The notes beneath the pieces were generated by a model. That model was not told the origin of the DNA. It worked only from the letters and a program-made list of their open reading frames with translations, and made no database searches. A DNA stretch of 64,000 bases from an uncultured Acidobacteriota bacterium (GTDB lineage Bacteria > Acidobacteriota > Thermoanaerobaculia > Multivoradales > SZUA-115). Positions 28,967 through 45,101 of the stretch are shown here, piece by piece. A program made the position numbers and the translations under genes. Within the stretch, counting starts at the first letter, position 1. Every line of letters begins with the position of its first letter. The stretch lies in contig CAWDVR010000003.1 of assembly GCA_963805975.1 (NCBI GenBank), forward strand, positions 768,001 through 832,000, in the 5' to 3' direction.

Positions 28967-29243
28967 GGTGCGCTCTCCTTGTACCAGCGAGGTCCGATGA
29001 GGATCTCGGAGTCGCCGCCAGTGGGCGGACCTCGCGGTTGAGCCGGCGGTGCGCGTTCTGTCGCGCCCTCCAGACGCGTAGACCGCCGTGGCTCGGGCTC
29101 ACGGGTGGGGAGAGACCCCTCCTTGGGCAGGGTCGACCCCTGACGGCCGGCTGGCGAGGGTCGGCCCTTCGGGCGTGGCGGGCACACGGGCCGGGCGCCG
29201 AGACTGCACGGCGTACCGAACCGGGCAACCCAGGAGGTCCGTC

Positions 29244-31868
29244 GTGAAGGAGATCTTTCGTCGTATCCGCTCGCAGGCGGTCATCACCCTGGCGGCGCTG
29301 GCCACCACGACCGTGGCGGCGTCACCTGTCGAGAGCCAGAGCATCACTCCCCGCACCACCGGCGGAGGCGGGCCGGGCACGAGCTGCACCTGCTACGTGG
29401 ACGGCTTCCAGACCGAGTGCCCGATGATAGACACCACGGGCTTTCCCCAGGCCGATTGCGGCTACCTGGGCGACGAGATCGGGGGAGGGGGCGGCGCGCC
29501 GGGCCCGGACGATTTCCCGCCCGACCTCACCCCGCTCGGCAGGTTCTTCTTCTTCGGCCGGCCGTCGGGGGGAGGCTCCTGTGTGCCCGCCACCACCTTC
29601 GAGCCCGGCGACCCGTACTGCGCACAGATCGTGATGATCAATCAGGGGGGCCTCGACACCTCGGGCGATCAGTACGAGGGCCTCGTCATCGACCAGGGCG
29701 GATCGAAAGTGGTGCCGGGTGTCGTGGTGCGGATCTTTCTCCAACCCACCGGCAGCGGGCTCGGGCAGGTGGACCTCGGCCAGGAGACGATCGATTTCCC
29801 CCTCGTACCGAGGACCGGCCTGGAGGCTCCCACTCCCGTGCTGCTGAACGTCGCTGGCCAGCTCCCGCCCGCGACGCCGCCGGGCGGCTACCGGCTGGGC
29901 GCCACGGTCGACGTCACCGACGTGCTGCCGGAGGTCGGCGGGGACAACAACAGCAAGCAGGCCGATCCGGACGAGGCGATCACCGTTGCCGGCGAAGGCC
30001 CCGATCTCGCTTCCGTTTCCGGCTCCGGGGCCGTGACCGGCTTCGGCAAAGCCGGCGGCGCTCCCACCCTCGGCCAGTCGTACCGGGTCACCTCGCGGGT
30101 GCGCAACGAAGGCAGCGCACCGATCAGCGGCACCTTCGAGGTCACCTATGTGGCGACTGTGGCCGGGGGTGACGAGCTGGCGGTGGGAGTCCGCCTCGGG
30201 CGGCAGAGCTTCACGCTCGAGGGCCTCGAGCCGCAGGCGGTCCGCACCGTGACCTTCAACAGCGCCGCCGGCTTGCGCGGTCTCCAACCCAAGGTGCGCT
30301 ACGAGCTGCGGGCGACGCTCGATCGCGGGTCGGAAACGCTCGAAGAGCGGCGGCTCATCGGCACCTTCACCGTGGCCGCCTCCGGCTCGACCTGCAACTC
30401 GCTGGTCCTCGACGCCAAGGTGGACGGGGTGGGGAGGAAGGTCAAGCACGTCGGCCAGCCCTTCACCTTCAGCGCCGAGGTCTCCCCGCCGCAATGCGCC
30501 AACCTGCCTCTCCACTTCAGCTGGAACTTCGGCGACGGCGGCTCGGCGTCGGGCCAGACCGCGACCCACACCTACTCGACGCCCGGCTCCCGCACCGCCA
30601 CGGTGAGCGTGAGCTGCTTCAAATGCCCCTTCCCCGGCAAGACGACCTCGACCGGGGTGACGGCAGTGCCTTTCGATTTCGAGATCGCCAAGCCCAGCGG
30701 CGATCCTGCAACCGCCGGCGTCGCGGGCATCAACCAGATCACGTTCAGCGGCGCGGACGGGCAGGCGGTGATCGCCGTCGAGGCGACGATTGACCCCGCC
30801 TCGGCCGGCGTGGACGCAGCCAAGCTCCTGCGCTGGTCGCTGATCCGCCGGCGGGGCGCCTTCGTCATCCGCGCCACGCCTCCCGGCACCACCTCCAACC
30901 TATGGGCGAGCGCCGATCCCACCAGCAAGCTGGGCCTCGGTCTCACCAACACGCTGACCCTTCGCGGCTACCCCGCCGAGAACGGCGATTTCGGTCCCTG
31001 GGAGGTCCGGCTGACGGTCGAGCAGGGCGGGGTCTCGGTCCACCGGCAGACGCCGGTCGAGCTGTTCTTCGAACGCAATCGGGTAGCGGACGGCCACACG
31101 GCGCCAAACTGGTTCCGCTACTGGCTTGAGGCCTACCGCAAGGGCCACGGCGACGAGCCGCGGCACTCCCGCTACGGTGGCTCACGGCCCGGCGTCGCCG
31201 GGTCCACCCCCGCGTTGGAGAGCTGGAGCTATCAGCAGGTCCTGACGGCCACCGACAAGCTGCGGATCGTGGTCTACGACGACGCGGCGACCGAGCTGCC
31301 CACGCTCTACTGCCCGGGCGCGCACAACCTCAAGGGGATCGAGCATCTCTTCGCGACCCTCGACCACGAGCGGCGCCACCTCGAGCAGATCCGCGTCTGC
31401 GACGCCCAGCTCTGGCGGGAGAACGGCTTCCCGCTGAGCCCCGTCGGCAGCTCTGCCTTTGTCAATGGCTGGTCGTGGGACACGGTACCGATCAACCATT
31501 TCGCGGTGGGACCGAACTCGGTTGCCGGCGCGGCAGGCGATGACGACGGCGACGGGGTCGCCGACCCGACGGGGCTCTTCGGGGCCAACCGGCGTGACTT
31601 CCTCGACGAGCTCGGCTGCCCCGCTACGGACGACGTCCAGCTCTTCGACGCTTCCAATTGGGACTGGTGCACCGATCTGGGAAATCCGCCGGTGGGAGCC
31701 GTGGCACGGCCCGCTCCGCTCTTGTGCCCTCAGCGCGTGCCGCCGCCACCGCCGCCTCCGACCTTCCCGGTGACGGACGCCATCGAGATCGACGCCTGCA
31801 ACCACGAGCAGGCTTCCTATCCCGCGGCCGTCAAAGCGGACTGGGCCAACCCAGGCCGGCAGCACTAA
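29244..31868 (+). CDS. Large secreted protein with CARDB/Ig-like and PKD domains and a C-terminal HExxH region
   Basis: AGGAGG RBS and signal peptide. PKD signature FSWNFGDGG...THTYSTPG. TLDHERRH and DDDGDGVAD near the C-terminus. Confidence 0.7.
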   Translation: MKEIFRRIRSQAVITLAALATTTVAASPVESQSITPRTTGGGGPGTSCTCYVDGFQTECPMIDTTGFPQADCGYLGDEIGGGGGAPGPDDFPPDLTPLGRFFFFGRPSGGGSCVPATTFEPGDPYCAQIVMINQGGLDTSGDQYEGLVIDQGGSKVVPGVVVRIFLQPTGSGLGQVDLGQETIDFPLVPRTGLEAPTPVLLNVAGQLPPATPPGGYRLGATVDVTDVLPEVGGDNNSKQADPDEAITVAGEGPDLASVSGSGAVTGFGKAGGAPTLGQSYRVTSRVRNEGSAPISGTFEVTYVATVAGGDELAVGVRLGRQSFTLEGLEPQAVRTVTFNSAAGLRGLQPKVRYELRATLDRGSETLEERRLIGTFTVAASGSTCNSLVLDAKVDGVGRKVKHVGQPFTFSAEVSPPQCANLPLHFSWNFGDGGSASGQTATHTYSTPGSRTATVSVSCFKCPFPGKTTSTGVTAVPFDFEIAKPSGDPATAGVAGINQITFSGADGQAVIAVEATIDPASAGVDAAKLLRWSLIRRRGAFVIRATPPGTTSNLWASADPTSKLGLGLTNTLTLRGYPAENGDFGPWEVRLTVEQGGVSVHRQTPVELFFERNRVADGHTAPNWFRYWLEAYRKGHGDEPRHSRYGGSRPGVAGSTPALESWSYQQVLTATDKLRIVVYDDAATELPTLYCPGAHNLKGIEHLFATLDHERRHLEQIRVCDAQLWRENGFPLSPVGSSAFVNGWSWDTVPINHFAVGPNSVAGAAGDDDGDGVADPTGLFGANRRDFLDELGCPATDDVQLFDASNWDWCTDLGNPPVGAVARPAPLLCPQRVPPPPPPPTFPVTDAIEIDACNHEQASYPAAVKADWANPGRQH

Positions 31869-37895: not shown

Positions 37896-38786
37896 TCACG
37901 GGCAAGGGTTGCCGGACGGCCAGCACTGGCCGTCGCACACACCGCCGATGACCACTCCGCAGCACTTCTTCCCGCTGGGGCAGGCCGATGCCGGCGGAGG
38001 GGTGTAGATCGGTCGCGGGTTGCCGCAGGTCCAGCCCGGAGGGTTCCTGATCCGGTTGGCCATGCGGCTGTTCGACTCGCTCTTGGCGGCGTTGGTGATG
38101 GCGACCGGCACCCACCATTCGGCGAACTCGGACAGGTCACAGAGGTACTCGATCTGGATCTGGTTCATCGAATGCTTGTGGCCGGCGAGCGAGCCGTACG
38201 AGTACTGCCCCAGCAGGTGGTTGAGCCAGTCGTCCGTGCAGTCCTCCGAGCAGTTGCTCCCCGGGTTGTTCGCGCCGTGGCTGAACCGCCAGTACGTGAT
38301 GTGCGTCGCTTCGTGCACCATGGTCCCGGCTCGCAGGCCGGCGATCCGGTTGTTGAAGCTCAGGCACTGCATCTCCACGCGGTTGGTCTGATACCAGCCG
38401 GCGAAGGCGCTGGCGAAGACGTCGTTGGCGTCCTCCGGCTCGAACCGGAAGTCGTGCTGCGAGCCCCCGGCCCAGCGGTAGTAGTCCACGTCGCTGTGCC
38501 AAGGGCCGAGCGTGCTGTCGCGCAGCCCGTAGGTCAGCAGGATGCCCGAGTCCATCATCTTGGTGAAGGCGTTCGTGGTGTCGCAGGTGTCCCAGCCCCA
38601 GCTCCCGCCCCAATGGCCGGACTGGAGGTTGAAGTAGGAGCGGAACCAGGTGCGGAAGTCTTGCCAGCAGCCGTGTACGTCGAAGAGAGCCTGCTCGGCA
38701 GTCTCCGTGGAGTTGGTGCATACCGCTATCGCGCTCGTGGGCGCGAAGGTAAAGGCGAGTACGAGAAGGGTGGCGATTGTGCGCAT
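37896..38786 (-). CDS. Secreted Cys/Trp-rich putative zinc metallopeptidase (HExxH) with a small Cys-rich C-terminal module
   Basis: Signal peptide, RAGTMVHEATH, PPP linker, then CPSGKKCCGVVIGGVCDGQCWPSGNPCP. Confidence 0.6.
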   Translation of the reverse strand: MRTIATLLVLAFTFAPTSAIAVCTNSTETAEQALFDVHGCWQDFRTWFRSYFNLQSGHWGGSWGWDTCDTTNAFTKMMDSGILLTYGLRDSTLGPWHSDVDYYRWAGGSQHDFRFEPEDANDVFASAFAGWYQTNRVEMQCLSFNNRIAGLRAGTMVHEATHITYWRFSHGANNPGSNCSEDCTDDWLNHLLGQYSYGSLAGHKHSMNQIQIEYLCDLSEFAEWWVPVAITNAAKSESNSRMANRIRNPPGWTCGNPRPIYTPPPASACPSGKKCCGVVIGGVCDGQCWPSGNPCP

Positions 38787-38852: not shown

Positions 38853-39689
38853 TCAGGGCTTGGCAGAGGCCCACTTCGCCTGCCAGGCACCGAGGCGCTC
38901 CGCGAATGCCTTGGCGTCCATGCCGGGGTGGAAGCGGGGCCGCTCGACGTACGGGTGCAGCTCCGAGGGCAGCAGCGCGTAGAGCTCCTTGGCGGCCTCG
39001 GCGCTGTCGCCGTGGTTCCACATGTAGGCGTCGATCGCCGTCGCGCGGACGTGGGTCGAGGGGTGCTTGAGCATCACTTCTTTCGCCGCCGCATCCGCAT
39101 CTGCCGTGGCCACGAAGGCGATGCCTTCCACGGCCTTCACCTGGACCATCTCTTCGATCTCGCGTGGGCTCAGCCGCTCGCCGCTCCCTTCCTTGGCCGG
39201 CAATGGCGTCCAGACGACCTCTTTCAAGAAAGGGATGGCGTCGGGCCGCCGTAGCTCGCCGACCATCCCGAGGGTGAGGAGGCGCTCCTGCAACGCCTCG
39301 GGGCGCAGCTGCTTGTAGCTCTCGGCGAAGGCGGCCACGATCCGCGGCTGCTGGCTGAGCGCCGCGAGCGTCTCGGTGAGCGCCGGGAGGTCCTCCGAGT
39401 TCGCCCGGAAGAGCTGGGGCAGAAGGCTCTGGAGCGCCCGGCCCAGGTCGGCGGCGGAGGCATCCTTGGAAAGGCCGGCCAGGGTCGAGCGGACGCTCGC
39501 GGCCTCGATGGCGGGAGCTGGCGCCTGGTTCGCTCCCGGGCGCTCCGGAGGAGCCTGCTCGGCTGGCGCCGTCCCGGAGCCCGCGGGTCGTGGCTCGGCC
39601 GCGCTCGCGGCGACCGCCCACGCGCCCAATAGGAGTGAGGCCGTTAAAAATCCCAATGGCGAAAGGTTCTTTTCTCTGGTCATCGTCAT
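38853..39689 (-). CDS. Secreted helical (HEAT-repeat-like) hypothetical protein
   Basis: Signal-like N-terminus, Pro/Ala linker and helical repeats (AIPFLKEVV; HPSTHVRATAIDA). Co-oriented upstream of the HExxH gene. Confidence 0.55.
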   Translation of the reverse strand: MTMTREKNLSPLGFLTASLLLGAWAVAASAAEPRPAGSGTAPAEQAPPERPGANQAPAPAIEAASVRSTLAGLSKDASAADLGRALQSLLPQLFRANSEDLPALTETLAALSQQPRIVAAFAESYKQLRPEALQERLLTLGMVGELRRPDAIPFLKEVVWTPLPAKEGSGERLSPREIEEMVQVKAVEGIAFVATADADAAAKEVMLKHPSTHVRATAIDAYMWNHGDSAEAAKELYALLPSELHPYVERPRFHPGMDAKAFAERLGAWQAKWASAKP

Positions 39690-39859
39690 GTTTGCATCAA
39701 TTAGGAATGTAAATAGACATCGCATGCCACGGGCATGCCTCATCTCGGCTTCGGAGGCGGGCCATCCGCGGCCCGTCCTGCCCCGCCGAGCCTTGCTCGT
39801 CGTTGGCCTACTTTTCTAACACGGCGCTCGAAAGCTGCGCAACCCCGCCGTGGGGGCGC

Positions 39860-41446
39860 TTACGCGCAGGTTTGCACGCAGCTCTGCCAGGTGCCCCCGA
39901 AGTCCGCCGGGTCGAGGCAGCGGAGGCTGCCCGGCACCGCTTCACCGCTGCAGCAATCGGTGCTCCGGAGCGTGTCGTCCACGCCGCCGGGAGGGATGCA
40001 GGAGACTGGCCGCGTGCCGCAGATGTGGCGGCAGCTCTCCCAGCTGGTGCCGAAGTCGGCGGCCACCTCGCAGACCGTGCTGCCGAACACCGCGACTCCG
40101 CTGCAGCAGTGGGTGCTCCGGAGCGTGTCGTCCACGCTGCCGTCCGGAACGCAGCGCTGCCCGTCGAGCGGCCCCGGGCCCGGTCCGGGTTGCCGGTGGC
40201 CCACCGAGGCCACCGTCCCCCAGCCCAGGACCGTGAGCAGCAGGGCAGCCGCCGAGCCCAGCGCGAGCGGCCGCCGCCGGGCGCGATGGAAGACGCCGGC
40301 GCGCCGCGGGCCCACGGGCCGCCCGGCGAGATGGCGGCGGACCTCGGCCGCGAGCTCGCCGGCCGTGGCAGGGCGGCGTGCGGGGTCCCTGGCGAGCGCT
40401 CTCGTCACCATGCCGTCCAGGTCGCCGGCGAGGTAGCGCGAGAGCGCGGCCGGGGAGAGGCCGCGAAGCCCGGCGAGCGCCGTTCGCTCGGCCTCGGTTC
40501 CCGCCCGGCGGGCGGCGGCGCTCGGTCGCGGCGGCGGCGCCTCGCGGAGCACCCGGGCGACCTCCTCGAGCGAACCGGACGGCGCGCTGTGAGGAAGCCG
40601 CCCGGTGAGCAGGCGGTAGAGCAGCACGCCCAGGGAGAAGACGTCGCTCGCCGGGGTGATCGCCCGGCCCTCGACCTGCTCCGGGCTCGCGTACTGCGGC
40701 GTCAGCACCCGCACCCAGGTGCCGGTGGTCTCGGCCTGGGTGAGCGCCTCGGGGTCGAGCAGCTTGGCGATTCCGAAGTCGAGCAGCTTGGGCACGCCGG
40801 CGGGGGTCACAAGGATGTTGGCGGGTTTGAGGTCGCGGTGCACGATGCCGCGCCGGTGGGCGTGCTCGACGGCGTCGCAGACCGTGGCGAAGAGCCGTAG
40901 CCGCGCCGCGAGGGAGAGCCGCCGGTCGTCGCAGTGGCGGTCGAGCGGCACTCCTTCCACGGGCTCCATGACGAAGTACGGAGTGCCCCTCGCCGTGCCC
41001 ACGTCGTACAGCCGGGCCACGTTCGGGTGCTCGAGGCTGGCCAGGATCCGCCATTCGGTTCGGAACCGCCGTTCGAGCACCCAGGCGCAAGGGGCCTGGC
41101 GGAGCATCTTGAGGGCCACCTCCGGCGCGCAGGGGAGGTCGGAGCGGCGAGCCAGGAACACGTACCCGCTGCCGCCGCGGCCGAGCTCCCGCAGGATCTC
41201 GTAGGGCCCCACCCGCTCGCCGGGGCGCGGTTCGGGGGCGGACCGGACGTGAAGCTCGCCCAGGAAAGCGCCGCAGCCGGCGTCCGCGGCGAGCAGCTCT
41301 TCGACCTCGCGCCGCAGGCCACCGCTTTCGCCACCGGCACGGTTCTCGCCGCAGGCACGGTCGAGGGCCGCGGCCCGCTCCTCGTCCGGCAGGCCCAGGA
41401 TCTCCTCGAAGATCAGCGCGGCCTGGCGGGCCTGTTCAGGCGTCAC
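39860..41446 (-). CDS. Hanks-type membrane Ser/Thr kinase with two extracellular 6-Cys repeats
   Basis: GRGGSG, VALK, HRDLKPAN, DFG, YASPEQ and DVFSLG, then TM LALGSAAALLLTVLGW. GTG start overlaps the ECF stop. Confidence 0.92.
   Translation of the reverse strand: MTPEQARQAALIFEEILGLPDEERAAALDRACGENRAGGESGGLRREVEELLAADAGCGAFLGELHVRSAPEPRPGERVGPYEILRELGRGGSGYVFLARRSDLPCAPEVALKMLRQAPCAWVLERRFRTEWRILASLEHPNVARLYDVGTARGTPYFVMEPVEGVPLDRHCDDRRLSLAARLRLFATVCDAVEHAHRRGIVHRDLKPANILVTPAGVPKLLDFGIAKLLDPEALTQAETTGTWVRVLTPQYASPEQVEGRAITPASDVFSLGVLLYRLLTGRLPHSAPSGSLEEVARVLREAPPPRPSAAARRAGTEAERTALAGLRGLSPAALSRYLAGDLDGMVTRALARDPARRPATAGELAAEVRRHLAGRPVGPRRAGVFHRARRRPLALGSAAALLLTVLGWGTVASVGHRQPGPGPGPLDGQRCVPDGSVDDTLRSTHCCSGVAVFGSTVCEVAADFGTSWESCRHICGTRPVSCIPPGGVDDTLRSTDCCSGEAVPGSLRCLDPADFGGTWQSCVQTCA
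39863..40153 (-). repeat. Tandem 6-Cys module (two copies) in the kinase
   Basis: CVPDGSVDDTLRSTHCCSG...CRHIC and CIPPGGVDDTLRSTDCCSG...CVQTC. Confidence 0.9.
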
Positions 41447-42008
41447 GCCGGGGCTCCGCCGCGAGGAATCGGAACAGCCAGGCACGGGCGGCCCGCCAGC
41501 GGCGGGTGACCGTGGGCACCGAGACGCCGAGCGCCTCGCCGATCTCCTCGGCCGAGAAGCCGGCGAAGACGCGGAGCTCCACCACCCGCGCCTGGTCGGG
41601 TGCCACGCTGGCCAGGCGTTCGAGCGCTTGGTCCAGCTCGAGGAGGCCGGCCCGTGGCGGGCTCGAAGGCAGCCGTGCCTCTTCGAGCGGGACGGCCGCT
41701 CGGGCGGCGCCCCGCTTCTGGTAGCCGCGGGTCCGGGCGTGGTCGACCAGCACCCGCCGCATGGTGGTGGCGGCGATGGCGAAGAACTGGCCGCGGCTGT
41801 GGCACTCCACGCTGTGCTGCCGCGCCAGACGCAGGTAGACCTCGTGGACCAGCGCCGCGGTCTCGAGCGTGTGATCACCGCGCTCGCGCCGCAGGTGGCC
41901 GTGCGCCAGGCGCCGCAGCTCGGCGTAGAGCAGGGGCACGACCCGGGGGAGGGCGCCGGGCTCGCCGTCGCTCCAGAGATCCAACAGCAGAGAGGCTTCG
42001 GAGCCCAT
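41436..42008 (-). CDS. ECF sigma factor of the STK-associated type (ECF43/TIGR02999-like)
   Basis: LYAELRRLA, HTLETAALVHEVYLRL, MRRVLVDHAR, QKRG and VVELRVFAG. Overlaps the kinase gene. Confidence 0.92.
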   Translation of the reverse strand: MGSEASLLLDLWSDGEPGALPRVVPLLYAELRRLAHGHLRRERGDHTLETAALVHEVYLRLARQHSVECHSRGQFFAIAATTMRRVLVDHARTRGYQKRGAARAAVPLEEARLPSSPPRAGLLELDQALERLASVAPDQARVVELRVFAGFSAEEIGEALGVSVPTVTRRWRAARAWLFRFLAAEPRRDA

Positions 42009-42124
42009 GGGCTTCTTCAAGGCAGAGTGTCGCCCGCCCTGGAAAGGGTGGCAGAGGCTGCCGGGCACCCGGTTGATCAGATCCGCCGCCGGTTGTCGCC
42101 ACGAGCGGAAGACGACCAAGGAGG

Positions 42125-43699
42125 ATGACGATGAGAAGACTCGTGCTCGGTGGCCTCGGAACGGTGCTCACCCTGGTGCTGGGGGCCGGCTCGGCCTCGG
42201 CCGGGTATCTGATCGCTCCCCTGGAGCAGGGGGAAGAGGCCAAGGCCCTCACCCCGGAGCTCGCCGCGAGCTCCGCCTACCGCGCCCTGGCGGAGGACCC
42301 CGCGAGCGCTTCGATCCGCGTCGTGCAGGCGGACCCGGAGGCGGTGGGCCTCGACACCGCCGCGCTGGCGCTTGCCCTCGGCGACGGTCTCGATCTCCGG
42401 GTCCAGCGGATCGGCTCGTACGTCAACGAGCGCGGCATCCTCGTGTGGCACGGCGTCGTCCTGCAACCGGGCGGGAGAGCCATGGACTTCGACCCCGCCG
42501 ACACGCTGATGCTGGTCGAGAATGGCGGCAAGCTCACCGGCAACCTGCGCTACCAGGGCCAGTGGTATCAGATCCTGCCGGTAGCCGAAGGCAGGCACGT
42601 GCTGGTACGCGTCGACCGCAGCCGCCTGCCGCTCGACCACTCCCCGGGGGAGCCCGAGCCGCGCGTCATCCCGATGCCCGCGCTGAGCGCCGGCACACCG
42701 GACAAGGCGCCGGGGGACACGGTCATCACGGTGCTGGTCAACTACACGCCGGCCGCCGCCGCGACCACGGGGGACATGGACGGCCTGATCGCGCTGGCGA
42801 TCGCCGAGTCCAACCAGGGCTACGCCAACAGCGGGGTGGCGATCGAGATGCAGCTCGCCCACAGCTCCCAGACCACCTACACCCAGAGCGGCTACGCGAG
42901 CACCGACCGCAGCCGCTACCAGAGCACCTCGGACAACCACATGAAGTACATCCACACCGAGCGCACCCAGCACGGGGCGGACGTGGGCATCCTGCTGGTC
43001 TCGGTGATCCTGGCCGACGACGGCGCGTCGCTCTGCGGCCAGGCCTCGAACATCGGCTCGACCGCCTCGACCGCGTTCGCCGTGGTGAAGACCACCAATT
43101 GCGCCACCTTGAACTACACCTTCGCGCACGAGATCGGGCACCTCCAGTCCGCCCGCCATAACCTCGAGTCCGACGGCTCCCTTTCCCCCTACGCCTACGG
43201 CCACGGGTACAGGTACGGGACGAGCTGGCGGACCATCATGGGCGTCGCCTCCACCTGCGGCGACTGCCCACGGCTCAACTACTGGTCGAACCCGAACAAG
43301 CTCTACAACGGCGTGCCGATGGGCACCGCCACCCGCGCCGACAACGCGCGCGTCCTCAACACCACGCGGGGCACGGTTGCCGCCTTCAATACGGCGCCGA
43401 GCTGCATTCCGGACGGCGGCTTCGACGACACCCTCGGTCAGACCAGCTGCTGCAGCGGCTTCGCCGTCAGCGGCTCGACCTATTGCACCAACCCCGCGGA
43501 CTGGAACAACGGCTGGGCGAGCTGCACCCACATCTGCGGCACGCCGCTCGCCAGTGGCTGCGTTCCATCCGGCGGCGTCGACGACACCCTGGGCCGCACG
43601 CACTGCTGCAGCGGCACTGCGGTGCCCGGCAGCACCTTCTGCAACGACCCCGCGGACTATGGCGACGACTGGACGACCTGCGCACAGATCTGTCAGTAA
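42125..43699 (+). CDS. Secreted reprolysin-like (M12B-type) metzincin with prodomain and two C-terminal 6-Cys repeats
   Basis: AAGGAGG RBS, signal peptide, HEIGHLQSARH (HExxHxxxxxH) and Met-turn TIM. Confidence 0.9.
   Translation: MTMRRLVLGGLGTVLTLVLGAGSASAGYLIAPLEQGEEAKALTPELAASSAYRALAEDPASASIRVVQADPEAVGLDTAALALALGDGLDLRVQRIGSYVNERGILVWHGVVLQPGGRAMDFDPADTLMLVENGGKLTGNLRYQGQWYQILPVAEGRHVLVRVDRSRLPLDHSPGEPEPRVIPMPALSAGTPDKAPGDTVITVLVNYTPAAAATTGDMDGLIALAIAESNQGYANSGVAIEMQLAHSSQTTYTQSGYASTDRSRYQSTSDNHMKYIHTERTQHGADVGILLVSVILADDGASLCGQASNIGSTASTAFAVVKTTNCATLNYTFAHEIGHLQSARHNLESDGSLSPYAYGHGYRYGTSWRTIMGVASTCGDCPRLNYWSNPNKLYNGVPMGTATRADNARVLNTTRGTVAAFNTAPSCIPDGGFDDTLGQTSCCSGFAVSGSTYCTNPADWNNGWASCTHICGTPLASGCVPSGGVDDTLGRTHCCSGTAVPGSTFCNDPADYGDDWTTCAQICQ
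43403..43696 (+). repeat. Tandem 6-Cys module (two copies) in the protease
   Basis: CIPDGGFDDTLGQTSCCSG...CTHIC and CVPSGGVDDTLGRTHCCSG...CAQIC. Confidence 0.9.
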
Positions 43700-43724: not shown

Positions 43725-45101
43725 ATGCGATCGACGAGCGCTCCGCGATGGGCCCGGTCCCGCCGGGCCCTGACCTCTGCCGCCGCCCTGGCGGTGGTTG
43801 CCCTGGGCTCCACGCACGCAACCGCCACCTCCACCCAGTTTCCGGGACTCGAGCTCTCGAGCTTCGACGAGCGCCAGATGAGCGAGGTGGTGCGCACTGC
43901 CTACAGCCGGCTGCAAGAACTGGTACGGGCCTCGGGCAACTCAGGATTCACGATCGAGGTGGAGAGCTTCGAAACCATCTATCCGGGCGACTTCGGCCGC
44001 GTCTACTGGTTCGGCCTGGTGGACATGCCCGAAGGCCGGGTGGTCGACGTGGTGCGCCAGGCGCACCGTGCCTCATGGGTAGGGGAGGACCGCACGCGGA
44101 CCGTCGAGCAGGTGAGCTACCGGGCGACCTGGCAGACCCTGGCGGCGGAGTGGCAGGACGCCGAGTGGGCCGCGAAGTTGCCCGCGATGGCGGTCTCCGA
44201 GGTGCTGTCCGCCTTGGGAGAGGGCCAGCCCGCGCTGCGCCGAGCTTCTTCGGTGAGCAGCTTCCGGGTGCGCGTGAACCTCGAAGGCGAGACCAGGCAC
44301 TATCGCGCCGCGGTGGTGTGGGTCCTCAACCGGGCGGCGAAACGGCTCGACTTCTTCGTCCAGGACCACATCGTCCAGGGGGTCGAGGCGGCGATCCGCG
44401 AGCCGGTGGCGGCGGCACCGGCAAAGCCGGGTGGACGCGGTTTGCAGGTGAACCGACTGGCGACCAAGAGCGCCCGCTGTTTCGAGAGCAATGTTCCCTC
44501 GATCGGCTCCGCCTTCCGCCAGGGGACCAATGGCCATACCGGCAGCAACTACCACCGCTCCGACGCCAGCTTCTCCAATACCTGCGCCTGCAACTACTAC
44601 TGCAGCCAGACTTGTACTGCCGCCGTGACCTCCTCGAACTGCTACGACACCGGCGGCTTCACTTCTGACGCCTGCCACAAGATGGCGCAGGACGTGGGCG
44701 GCAGCAGCCAGACGGTCGCCGACGGGCACGTCAATCCCGCGAGCTGCGGCGCGGGCTTCGGTTGTATCCAGAAGGCCTGCCTCTTCTGCTCCTGCTCGCT
44801 GGGCGTGAGCGTCAGCAGCTCGGGGGCCAGCGTCTCTTTCAACTCCTTCGGCAGCCCGGACTGGGACGGCAGTCTCCAGTACGGGCGGACCTGCACCCCC
44901 TGCTCGACGATCACCGACGACGAGGGCGACGATGACGACGACGATGGAGGGGGCGGAAACCCGCCCGGCGGAGGTGGAGGAGGCGGGGGCAATCCCCCCC
45001 TGGTCGATGAGTGCGACCCGGACGGCGACGGCTGGGTGACGGAGTCGGAGTGTGTCCTGCAGTGCGGAGGCACGGTCAACGGCGAGTGGTGCGATCTCTG
45101 A
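43725..45101 (+). CDS. Secreted protein with a Cys-rich domain, Asp/Gly linker and EF-hand-like tail
   Basis: AAGGAGG RBS, signal peptide (RR-containing), many Cys in the C-terminal half, DDEGDDDDDD, poly-Gly and DPDGDGWVTESE. Confidence 0.7.
   Translation: MRSTSAPRWARSRRALTSAAALAVVALGSTHATATSTQFPGLELSSFDERQMSEVVRTAYSRLQELVRASGNSGFTIEVESFETIYPGDFGRVYWFGLVDMPEGRVVDVVRQAHRASWVGEDRTRTVEQVSYRATWQTLAAEWQDAEWAAKLPAMAVSEVLSALGEGQPALRRASSVSSFRVRVNLEGETRHYRAAVVWVLNRAAKRLDFFVQDHIVQGVEAAIREPVAAAPAKPGGRGLQVNRLATKSARCFESNVPSIGSAFRQGTNGHTGSNYHRSDASFSNTCACNYYCSQTCTAAVTSSNCYDTGGFTSDACHKMAQDVGGSSQTVADGHVNPASCGAGFGCIQKACLFCSCSLGVSVSSSGASVSFNSFGSPDWDGSLQYGRTCTPCSTITDDEGDDDDDDGGGGNPPGGGGGGGGNPPLVDECDPDGDGWVTESECVLQCGGTVNGEWCDL

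Follow-up and report, generated by a model that had tools for sequence, protein, structure and literature searches.

Why should a receptor kinase and the protease encoded beside it carry the same extracellular domain? The question is raised by a window of 64,000 nucleotides (nt) from an uncultured Acidobacteriota bacterium (contig CAWDVR010000003.1, assembly GCA_963805975.1), in which a Hanks-type Ser/Thr receptor kinase gene and a gene for an extracytoplasmic function (ECF) sigma factor lie on the reverse strand and are separated by a 116-nt gap from a divergent gene on the forward strand for a secreted metzincin. The sigma factor gene overlaps the start of the kinase gene by 11 nt. The original prediction held that kinase and protease share an unnamed six-cysteine domain that detects a target in the one and delivers the other to it, and that the kinase activates the sigma factor.

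The shared domain is a module of 45 amino acids (aa) that occurs twice in each protein, and the tandem forms the last 96-97 residues of both. All four modules have exactly the predicted spacing, C-x14-CC-x10-C-x12-C-x3-C, and are pairwise identical at 26-29 of 45 residues (58-64%), while the DNA of the two tails forms inverted repeats that are 71-75% complementary. Among 50,947 six-frame open reading frames (ORFs) of the 5.36-Mb genome the exact pattern is confined to these two, and a hidden Markov model (HMM) of 148 modules gave no further match above 17 bits in the genome. The module had not been recognised as a named family, and this stands: Pfam, NCBIfam and PHROGs gave no family match, PDB no sequence match (best E 0.95), and an Atlas search no usable match, or scores of at most 0.79. 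No description was found in the literature by word search, which is blind to an unnamed domain. As judged by these comparisons, the unnamed domain family is new.

A profile search of 1.84 billion representatives at 50% identity returned 67 matches at E ≤0.001, three of which were discarded when the module was not seen on rescoring, and all searches combined yielded 255 distinct carriers, not counting the window protease's own database entry. The queries were tandems, and single modules are therefore under-counted. A census of the first 167 carriers comprised 72 peptidases (48 M10, 17 M12, five trypsin-like and two M23), 38 kinases or kinase fragments (32 with tetratricopeptide repeats, TPR, and six without), five BNR proteins, six Vps10 proteins, one other conserved type and 45 small or other proteins; the module is also found on small lipoproteins and a phage-type FN3 protein. 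Named carrier records come from Thermoanaerobaculia, Holophagales, other Acidobacteriota and Kofleriaceae, and two viral contigs bear a single module, which in the one examined is the C-terminus of a 353-aa protein. Within the order to which the window belongs, 34 of 300 genomes have the module. The module is promiscuous, a mobile domain on many unrelated secreted proteins. Close M12 relatives of the window protease (51-58% identity; 20 loci chosen among the top matches for their long flanks) end at ..AFR without the module in 21 of 21 cases, so that the protease tail is an add-on. Because 130 of 133 tandem carriers terminate within two residues of the last Cys, these relatives lack it and it rides on unrelated secreted hydrolases, the tandem is predicted to behave as a detachable C-terminal binding domain, like accessory binding modules, in keeping with the binding role first proposed. 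The near-invariant residues of 148 aligned modules (DD, T, L, D and W) suggest a putative binding surface.

Several carriers have arrangements of their own. Phage-type proteins with FN3-like repeats (L156:412-1473, P0127 and P0132) contain a single module, at the extreme C-terminus in L156, and P0127 matches a PHROGs tail family. In the predicted surface proteins P0107, P0109, P0110, P0117 and P0120, a single module is followed by a second conserved Cys motif, CPYGPTGT..CPCP.., and their N-termini may resemble DPANN archaeal proteins. Secreted proteins of about 220 aa (P0081, P0083, P0090, P0235, P0241, P0243, P0246 and P0249) have an unnamed N-terminal part before the tandem, and the three of this group placed in a tree fall on the kinase side. 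At L014, L018, L021, L029, L043, L096-L098 and L092:12424-14549, an M10 protease with the module is the second gene of an operon and its partner is a secreted protein of about 200 aa; a homologue of this partner is the first gene of the operon that diverges from the module kinase of genome G501.

It had also been proposed to predict the structure of the module, and the outcome is a confident fold with weak fold matches only. The AlphaFold2 models reach a predicted local distance difference test score (pLDDT) of 96.3 for the tandem and 91.9 for a single module. Fold searches of PDB and BFVD returned nothing below E 0.7 or above Z 2.7, which does not show a new fold. For the single module, seven of nine VIA rows (Z 2.0-2.7) and six of six Foldseek rows are small Cys-rich peptides or colipase, four VIA rows having root-mean-square deviations of 2.0-2.3 Å over 31-33 residues, and the double-knot toxin (DkTx) heads the tandem list at E 0.73. 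We take the matched Cys-rich peptides to be cystine knots. The module is like the inhibitor cystine knot (ICK) peptides, DkTx and colipase in its size of about 45 aa, its six Cys including a CC pair, its sparse regular structure and its tandem arrangement; it is unlike them in being bacterial, in being appended to enzymes and receptors, and in its Cys order, which is C-CC-C-C-C in the 148 aligned modules. The canonical ICK framework is C-C-CC-C-C. Because the orders differ, the likeness to cystine knots is a lead only, and by its sequence the module is not a canonical knottin. DkTx itself is a tandem of bivalent design (PMC6262176; here and below, published systems are cited from passages of the papers named).

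In the kinase, the catalytic motifs are intact (GRGGSG at residue 89, VALK at 110, HRDLKPAN at 203 and DFG at 223). The predicted transmembrane helix is its one hydrophobic segment, and basic residues on the N-terminal side of this segment lead us to predict that the modules face outward. The outer part of 116 aa consists of a 19-aa linker and the two modules, with no TPR array. Of 14 further kinases of the same type that were checked in this genome, 11 have TPR arrays, one is truncated within a linker of TPR type and two have other domains; an ectodomain shared with a neighbouring gene was not found at these 14 loci. The six-Cys tandem as the sole ectodomain of a kinase is new. The DD of module 1 is retained in all six TPR-less module kinases, whereas 31 of 32 kinases with both TPR and module have another pair there, usually AE or AD. 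A kinase-domain tree is compatible with one or several origins of module kinases. The genome holds 13 TIGR02999-type ECFs, each beside a Hanks kinase whose ectodomain is mostly TPR, and several of these loci adjoin predicted secreted peptidases; the kinase at C1:913186-914994 and its TPR array are apparently split, the array being in a different frame.

The protease has an N-terminal hydrophobic segment and matches Reprolysin_5 (E 1.8e-15; PF13688, 58.1 bits, cut-off 27). A zinc-binding motif with Ser for Gly, at residue 335, and the Met-turn TIMG at 370 identify it as an M12 metzincin. The Mep72 model NF052434 scores 83.6 bits over the catalytic domain, below its cut-off of 645, which places the protein outside Mep72. 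Mep72 of P. aeruginosa resembles it in having a signal peptide, an M12-type metzincin domain and two tandem C-terminal modules, in that case carbohydrate-binding modules (CBMs; PMC4334185). The window protease differs in carrying the six-Cys tandem and in being linked to an ECF and a kinase, and no BamI-like gene was recognised in this comparison.

The sigma factor matches TIGR02999 at 190.5 bits (cut-off 126.15) and PF07638 at 168 bits and, as had been anticipated, forms with its kinase a pair of the EcfK/PknS type, ECF43, a name assigned here by type (PF07638/TIGR02999) and not by an ECF43 group HMM. The co-encoded Hanks kinase with intact motifs and one transmembrane helix agrees with that assignment. 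Members of ECF43 are activated by co-encoded kinases (PMC13147305, PMC8999054), and the group is listed among the kinase-associated ones that are typically without anti-sigma factors (PMC7826278). Their switch is a Thr in a QTTA/STTA motif, T51 in EcfK, which is 88% conserved (PMC13147305, PMC8999054). In the window ECF the DAED motif of sigma2.2 is replaced by a deviant ETAA (E49-T50-A51-A52) that keeps one acidic residue, and the position of EcfK T51, set from the motif consensus in those two papers and not from alignment to EcfK, is Ala51, so the canonical phosphosite is lacking. All 12 other ECF paralogues of the genome have Thr there. The same motif reads ETSA in G001, a genome of the same genus, and ETGA in G501 and G580, giving ET[A/S/G]A in four of four module-kinase ECFs; on this comparison the module-kinase ECFs appear to share a derived switch motif, and the sub-lineage so marked is new. 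Given the Ala, a T51E-type phosphomimic cannot be copied and other sites are needed. EcfK with the T51A substitution remains functional via T106 (PMC13147305, PMC8999054).

A promoter-like box lies in the gap before the protease. Between the window and G001, TTGATCAGATC and CGGTTGTCGCCA are invariant and oriented toward the protease, and the 13 fixed letters of the window box have one genome match at one mismatch and one control match. The core TGATC-N17/18-TCGC precedes the metalloprotease gene or operon at four of four module-kinase loci. G501 and G580 share TGATCCCTTTTC-N5-CTCGCCTCGCGTA exactly (25/25 fixed positions); in each genome it occurs once, in non-coding DNA ahead of protease genes that differ and lie divergently in G501 and downstream in G580. 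The shorter G501/G580 form was found in three of 300 genomes at two mismatches, against two control matches; a two-mismatch match in G551 was set aside because it lies at a housekeeping sigma/primase-like region. The background of the core is 0.25% per 200 nt. Upstream of ECF43 genes from five further genomes it was missing in 11 of 11 scored cases (30 loci were fetched, 19 of them unscored with the ECF not located or the flank short), and its three occurrences within 4 kb of the genome's 12 other ECF43 genes are as expected from 149 genome-wide matches. A de novo Gibbs search of these 12 loci did not converge on one promoter motif. Occurrences of TGATC..TCGC at -58 of five M10-module genes were rejected, as they lie inside the coding end of the upstream gene and have a 16-nt spacer. 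The pattern was derived from the same four loci, which form two related pairs, and the box is therefore suggestive and not proof. Its conserved orientation fits the circuit toward the protease that had been drawn, and the protease is probably, as predicted from these sequences, the target of the ECF.

How might these parts work together? We see about an even chance that the shared tandem lets the kinase sense an outside target and aims the ECF-induced protease at the same target. The tandem would bind a polymer of a surface or matrix, with a glycan or glycoprotein the most likely kind, whereupon the kinase would dimerise and, position 51 being Ala, phosphorylate the ECF on a residue other than the canonical one (T50, or T93, S115 or S116 near the linker). 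The ECF would then fire the TGATC-N17-TCGC box, and the protease would be transcribed, secreted and docked via its own tandem. Both tandems would have been recruited separately from a mobile pool and would share a common ligand class rather than form a co-evolving private pair.

Known systems offer partial likenesses. The ECF43 pairs EcfK/PknS of X. citri and EcfP/PknT of V. parahaemolyticus likewise pair a TIGR02999/PF07638 ECF with a transmembrane Hanks kinase, with no gene for an anti-sigma factor (PMC13147305, PMC8999054). PknS has a periplasmic TPR region, whereas the window kinase has the six-Cys tandem only; the EcfK switch Thr is Ala in the window; and the likely target in the window is one adjacent protease, not a type VI secretion system or polymyxin regulon. 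No activating ligand is named for PknS or PknT in the passages on them. In C. thermocellum, the sensor CBM3 of RsgI1, 2 and 4 is also present on the SigI-controlled secreted scaffoldin CipA (PMC4711584), and because of this precedent the concept of a domain shared by sensor and effector is not new. The SigI/RsgI system differs in using anti-sigma release, not phosphorylation, and in having known CBMs and ligands, and no sequence relationship to it was found. By analogy, the window pair is likely to be an atypical ECF43-type pair working like RsgI/CBM sensing.

Several results weigh against a bond between kinase and protease that is specific to this locus. A quick tree of 164 tandems, built on 97 columns and with many unresolved forks, places 38 of 38 kinase tandems on one side of a branch (SH-aLRT 96), together with nine small non-enzyme proteins and zero enzymes. 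In a careful 31-row tree the kinase tandems need one change (56/95), and the approximately unbiased (AU) test rejects sisterhood of the window kinase and protease tandems at p 1.6e-82. By identity to the kinase tandem, the neighbouring protease tandem ranks 86th of 126 non-kinase tandems, or 117th of 154 in a larger set. No nearby ECF43 or module kinase accompanies 22 of 23 non-kinase module genes (those with at least 4 kb on both sides), the exception being the G001 orthologue, and in 30 of 34 module-bearing genomes no module kinase was found. The exact arrangement occurs in the window, in G001 and, in pieces, in a relative about 90% identical in run X2, and the pairing is thus seen in one orthologous lineage. 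In the 79%-complete genome G501 the kinase is the only module match, and the divergent two-gene operon adjoining it includes a zinc protease with other tails and not the module; in G580 the M12 gene downstream of the module kinase is cut by the contig end. For kinases with TPR and module on contigs above 8 kb, one of 18 has, as judged by eye, a module protein on an equal-sized contig (669 kb). Predicted secreted proteins are neighbours of several other ECF43 loci in the genome as well, so that adjacency alone is weak. The Ala at the ECF phosphosite and the derivation of the box from the four loci count on the same side. The expectation that the tandems would cluster by locus accordingly failed, and the refuting case named at the outset, a known promiscuous domain with no locus pairing, came true in the promiscuity of the domain and not in its being a known one. 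A private, locus-matched, co-evolving circuit is not supported by these sequences.

Other observations speak for a looser tie. Each of the four module-kinase loci that could be read in genomes has a secreted metalloprotease gene or operon as its neighbour, and in the window and G001 the protease is an M12 with the module. Of the TPR-less module kinases on contigs above 6 kb, three of four have, as judged by eye, a module-bearing secreted protein adjacent or on an equal-sized contig: the window, G001 and, indirectly, kinase P0049 with the secreted non-protease P0081, both on 18,698-bp contigs. Kinase P0175 and the small protein P0223 are likewise linked indirectly, both being on 669,409-bp contigs. 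Equal-sized contigs can match by chance, as is clear from P0069/P0096, a rejected case in which both contigs are of 3,013 bp and come from different sources, too short for both genes. One low-depth contig of run X1 shows the joint 38416/43339 and was regarded as probably chimeric. P0008 (M12 with module) and P0247 (small lipoprotein with module) are both on 9,665-bp contigs, which indirectly suggests that module genes can cluster without a kinase. Functional coupling of kinase and protease is plausible.

Among other explanations, the one that fares best, though we consider it unlikely, is that the promiscuous module serves as a stabilising or generic adhesion tail, recruited separately and with no common ligand, and that the neighbourhood reflects the position of ECF43 loci near secreted genes. 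It would suit the tree and rank tests, the 22 of 23 unlinked module genes, the degenerate module 1 of 31 of 32 TPR kinases and the secreted proteins beside other ECF43 loci. It accounts less readily for the head-to-head position of the genome's only two module genes across the ECF, kept in G001 and the run X2 relative, for a tandem that is the kinase's sole ectodomain and keeps DD in six of six TPR-less kinases, and for the second lineage that probably repeats the pairing with a non-protease (P0049/P0081).

The protease tail could also be shed during or after export and act on the kinase tandem as a homotypic signal that serves feedback or the sensing of density. The tandem CBMs of Mep72 are released when it is exported (PMC4334185), many stand-alone proteins consist of a signal peptide and a tandem, and in the quick tree the tandems of small non-enzyme proteins fall together with those of kinases; yet a private ligand-receptor pair should co-vary by locus, which it does not, and most stand-alone tandems are in genomes where no module kinase was found, which makes this quite improbable in our view. 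Little probability, too, is given to the module being a cystine-knot-like protease bait or inhibitor that would restrain the protease and, on the kinase, sense proteolysis or an incoming protease. Peptidases of the M10, M12, trypsin-like or M23 classes make up 72 of the 167 censused carriers and the weak fold matches are presumably to cystine-knot-type peptides, but the module rides on four unrelated peptidase classes and on non-peptidases (BNR, Vps10, lipoproteins, phage-type protein), and no fold match exceeds Z 2.7. Least probable of all is an ECF that is active unphosphorylated, with Glu49 giving the negative charge, a kinase-independent protease and a kinase with other substrates, for although ET[A/S/G]A in four of four module-kinase ECFs against Thr in 12 of 12 paralogues would fit, the kinase motifs are intact, the genes overlap and EcfK T51A still functions through T106 (PMC13147305).

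Table 1. Features of the kinase-sigma factor-protease locus, in window positions.
Feature	Position	Strand	Basis or remark
Hanks-type Ser/Thr receptor kinase, ECF43-associated type, 528 aa	39860..41446	-	GTG start, PF00069 E 2.5e-44
Predicted kinase transmembrane helix, aa 394-412	40211..40267	-	hydropathy
Kinase six-Cys module 1, aa 432-476	40019..40153	-	spacing pattern
Kinase six-Cys module 2, aa 483-527	39866..40000	-	spacing pattern
ECF sigma factor, TIGR02999/PF07638, ECF43-like	41436..42008	-	profile matches
Promoter-like bipartite box TGATC-N17-TCGC, function inferred	42074..42099	+	26-51 nt before protease start
Secreted M12/reprolysin-type metzincin, 524 aa: signal peptide, pro-region, HEIGHLQSARH, C-terminal tandem	42125..43699	+	
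Zinc-binding motif HEIGHLQSARH, aa 335-345	43127..43159	+	
Protease six-Cys module 1, aa 427-471	43403..43537	+	spacing pattern
Protease six-Cys module 2, aa 479-523	43559..43693	+	spacing pattern

The surroundings of the locus contain further predicted secreted proteins. Downstream of the kinase lies a cassette of two genes on the reverse strand (window 38853-39698 and 37896-38786). One product is a secreted HEAT-repeat-like protein (PF13646, slightly below cut-off); the other, also secreted and rich in Cys, contains HEATH as its HExxH motif, has a Cys-rich tail of a different kind and gave no match in Pfam, NCBIfam, PHROGs or PDB. The cassette is tandemly duplicated in G001. A 458-aa Cys-rich predicted secreted protein with no family match follows the protease after 25 nt (43725-45101, forward strand) and is not at the orthologous place in G001. 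Furthermore, a gene at 29088-31868 on the forward strand encodes a 926-aa predicted secreted protein with PKD/CARDB domains and HExxH near its C-terminus.

Small disulfide-rich binder scaffolds are mostly known from eukaryotes. The module family would add predicted binders of this kind in bacteria and phages. An ECF sub-lineage without the canonical Thr tests how widely the ECF43 phosphoswitch holds. The ectodomain, 97 residues long, confidently modelled and also found on secreted enzymes, offers a cheap route to the ligand of a kinase, as the same tail is on the enzymes and whatever an enzyme tail binds is therefore a candidate signal for the kinase. More broadly, and only tentatively, an undescribed cystine-knot-like bivalent domain of bacteria may mark an ECF43 sub-lineage whose phosphoswitch is shifted (ET[A/S/G]A) and which has a promoter of its own (TGATC-N17/18-TCGC). 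The domain would serve both as sensor and to aim the hydrolase that the receptor induces, in a see-and-cut circuit of soil Acidobacteriota against the surfaces of other cells. If true, such a circuit would for the first time make the search for the ligand of an ECF43 kinase tractable.

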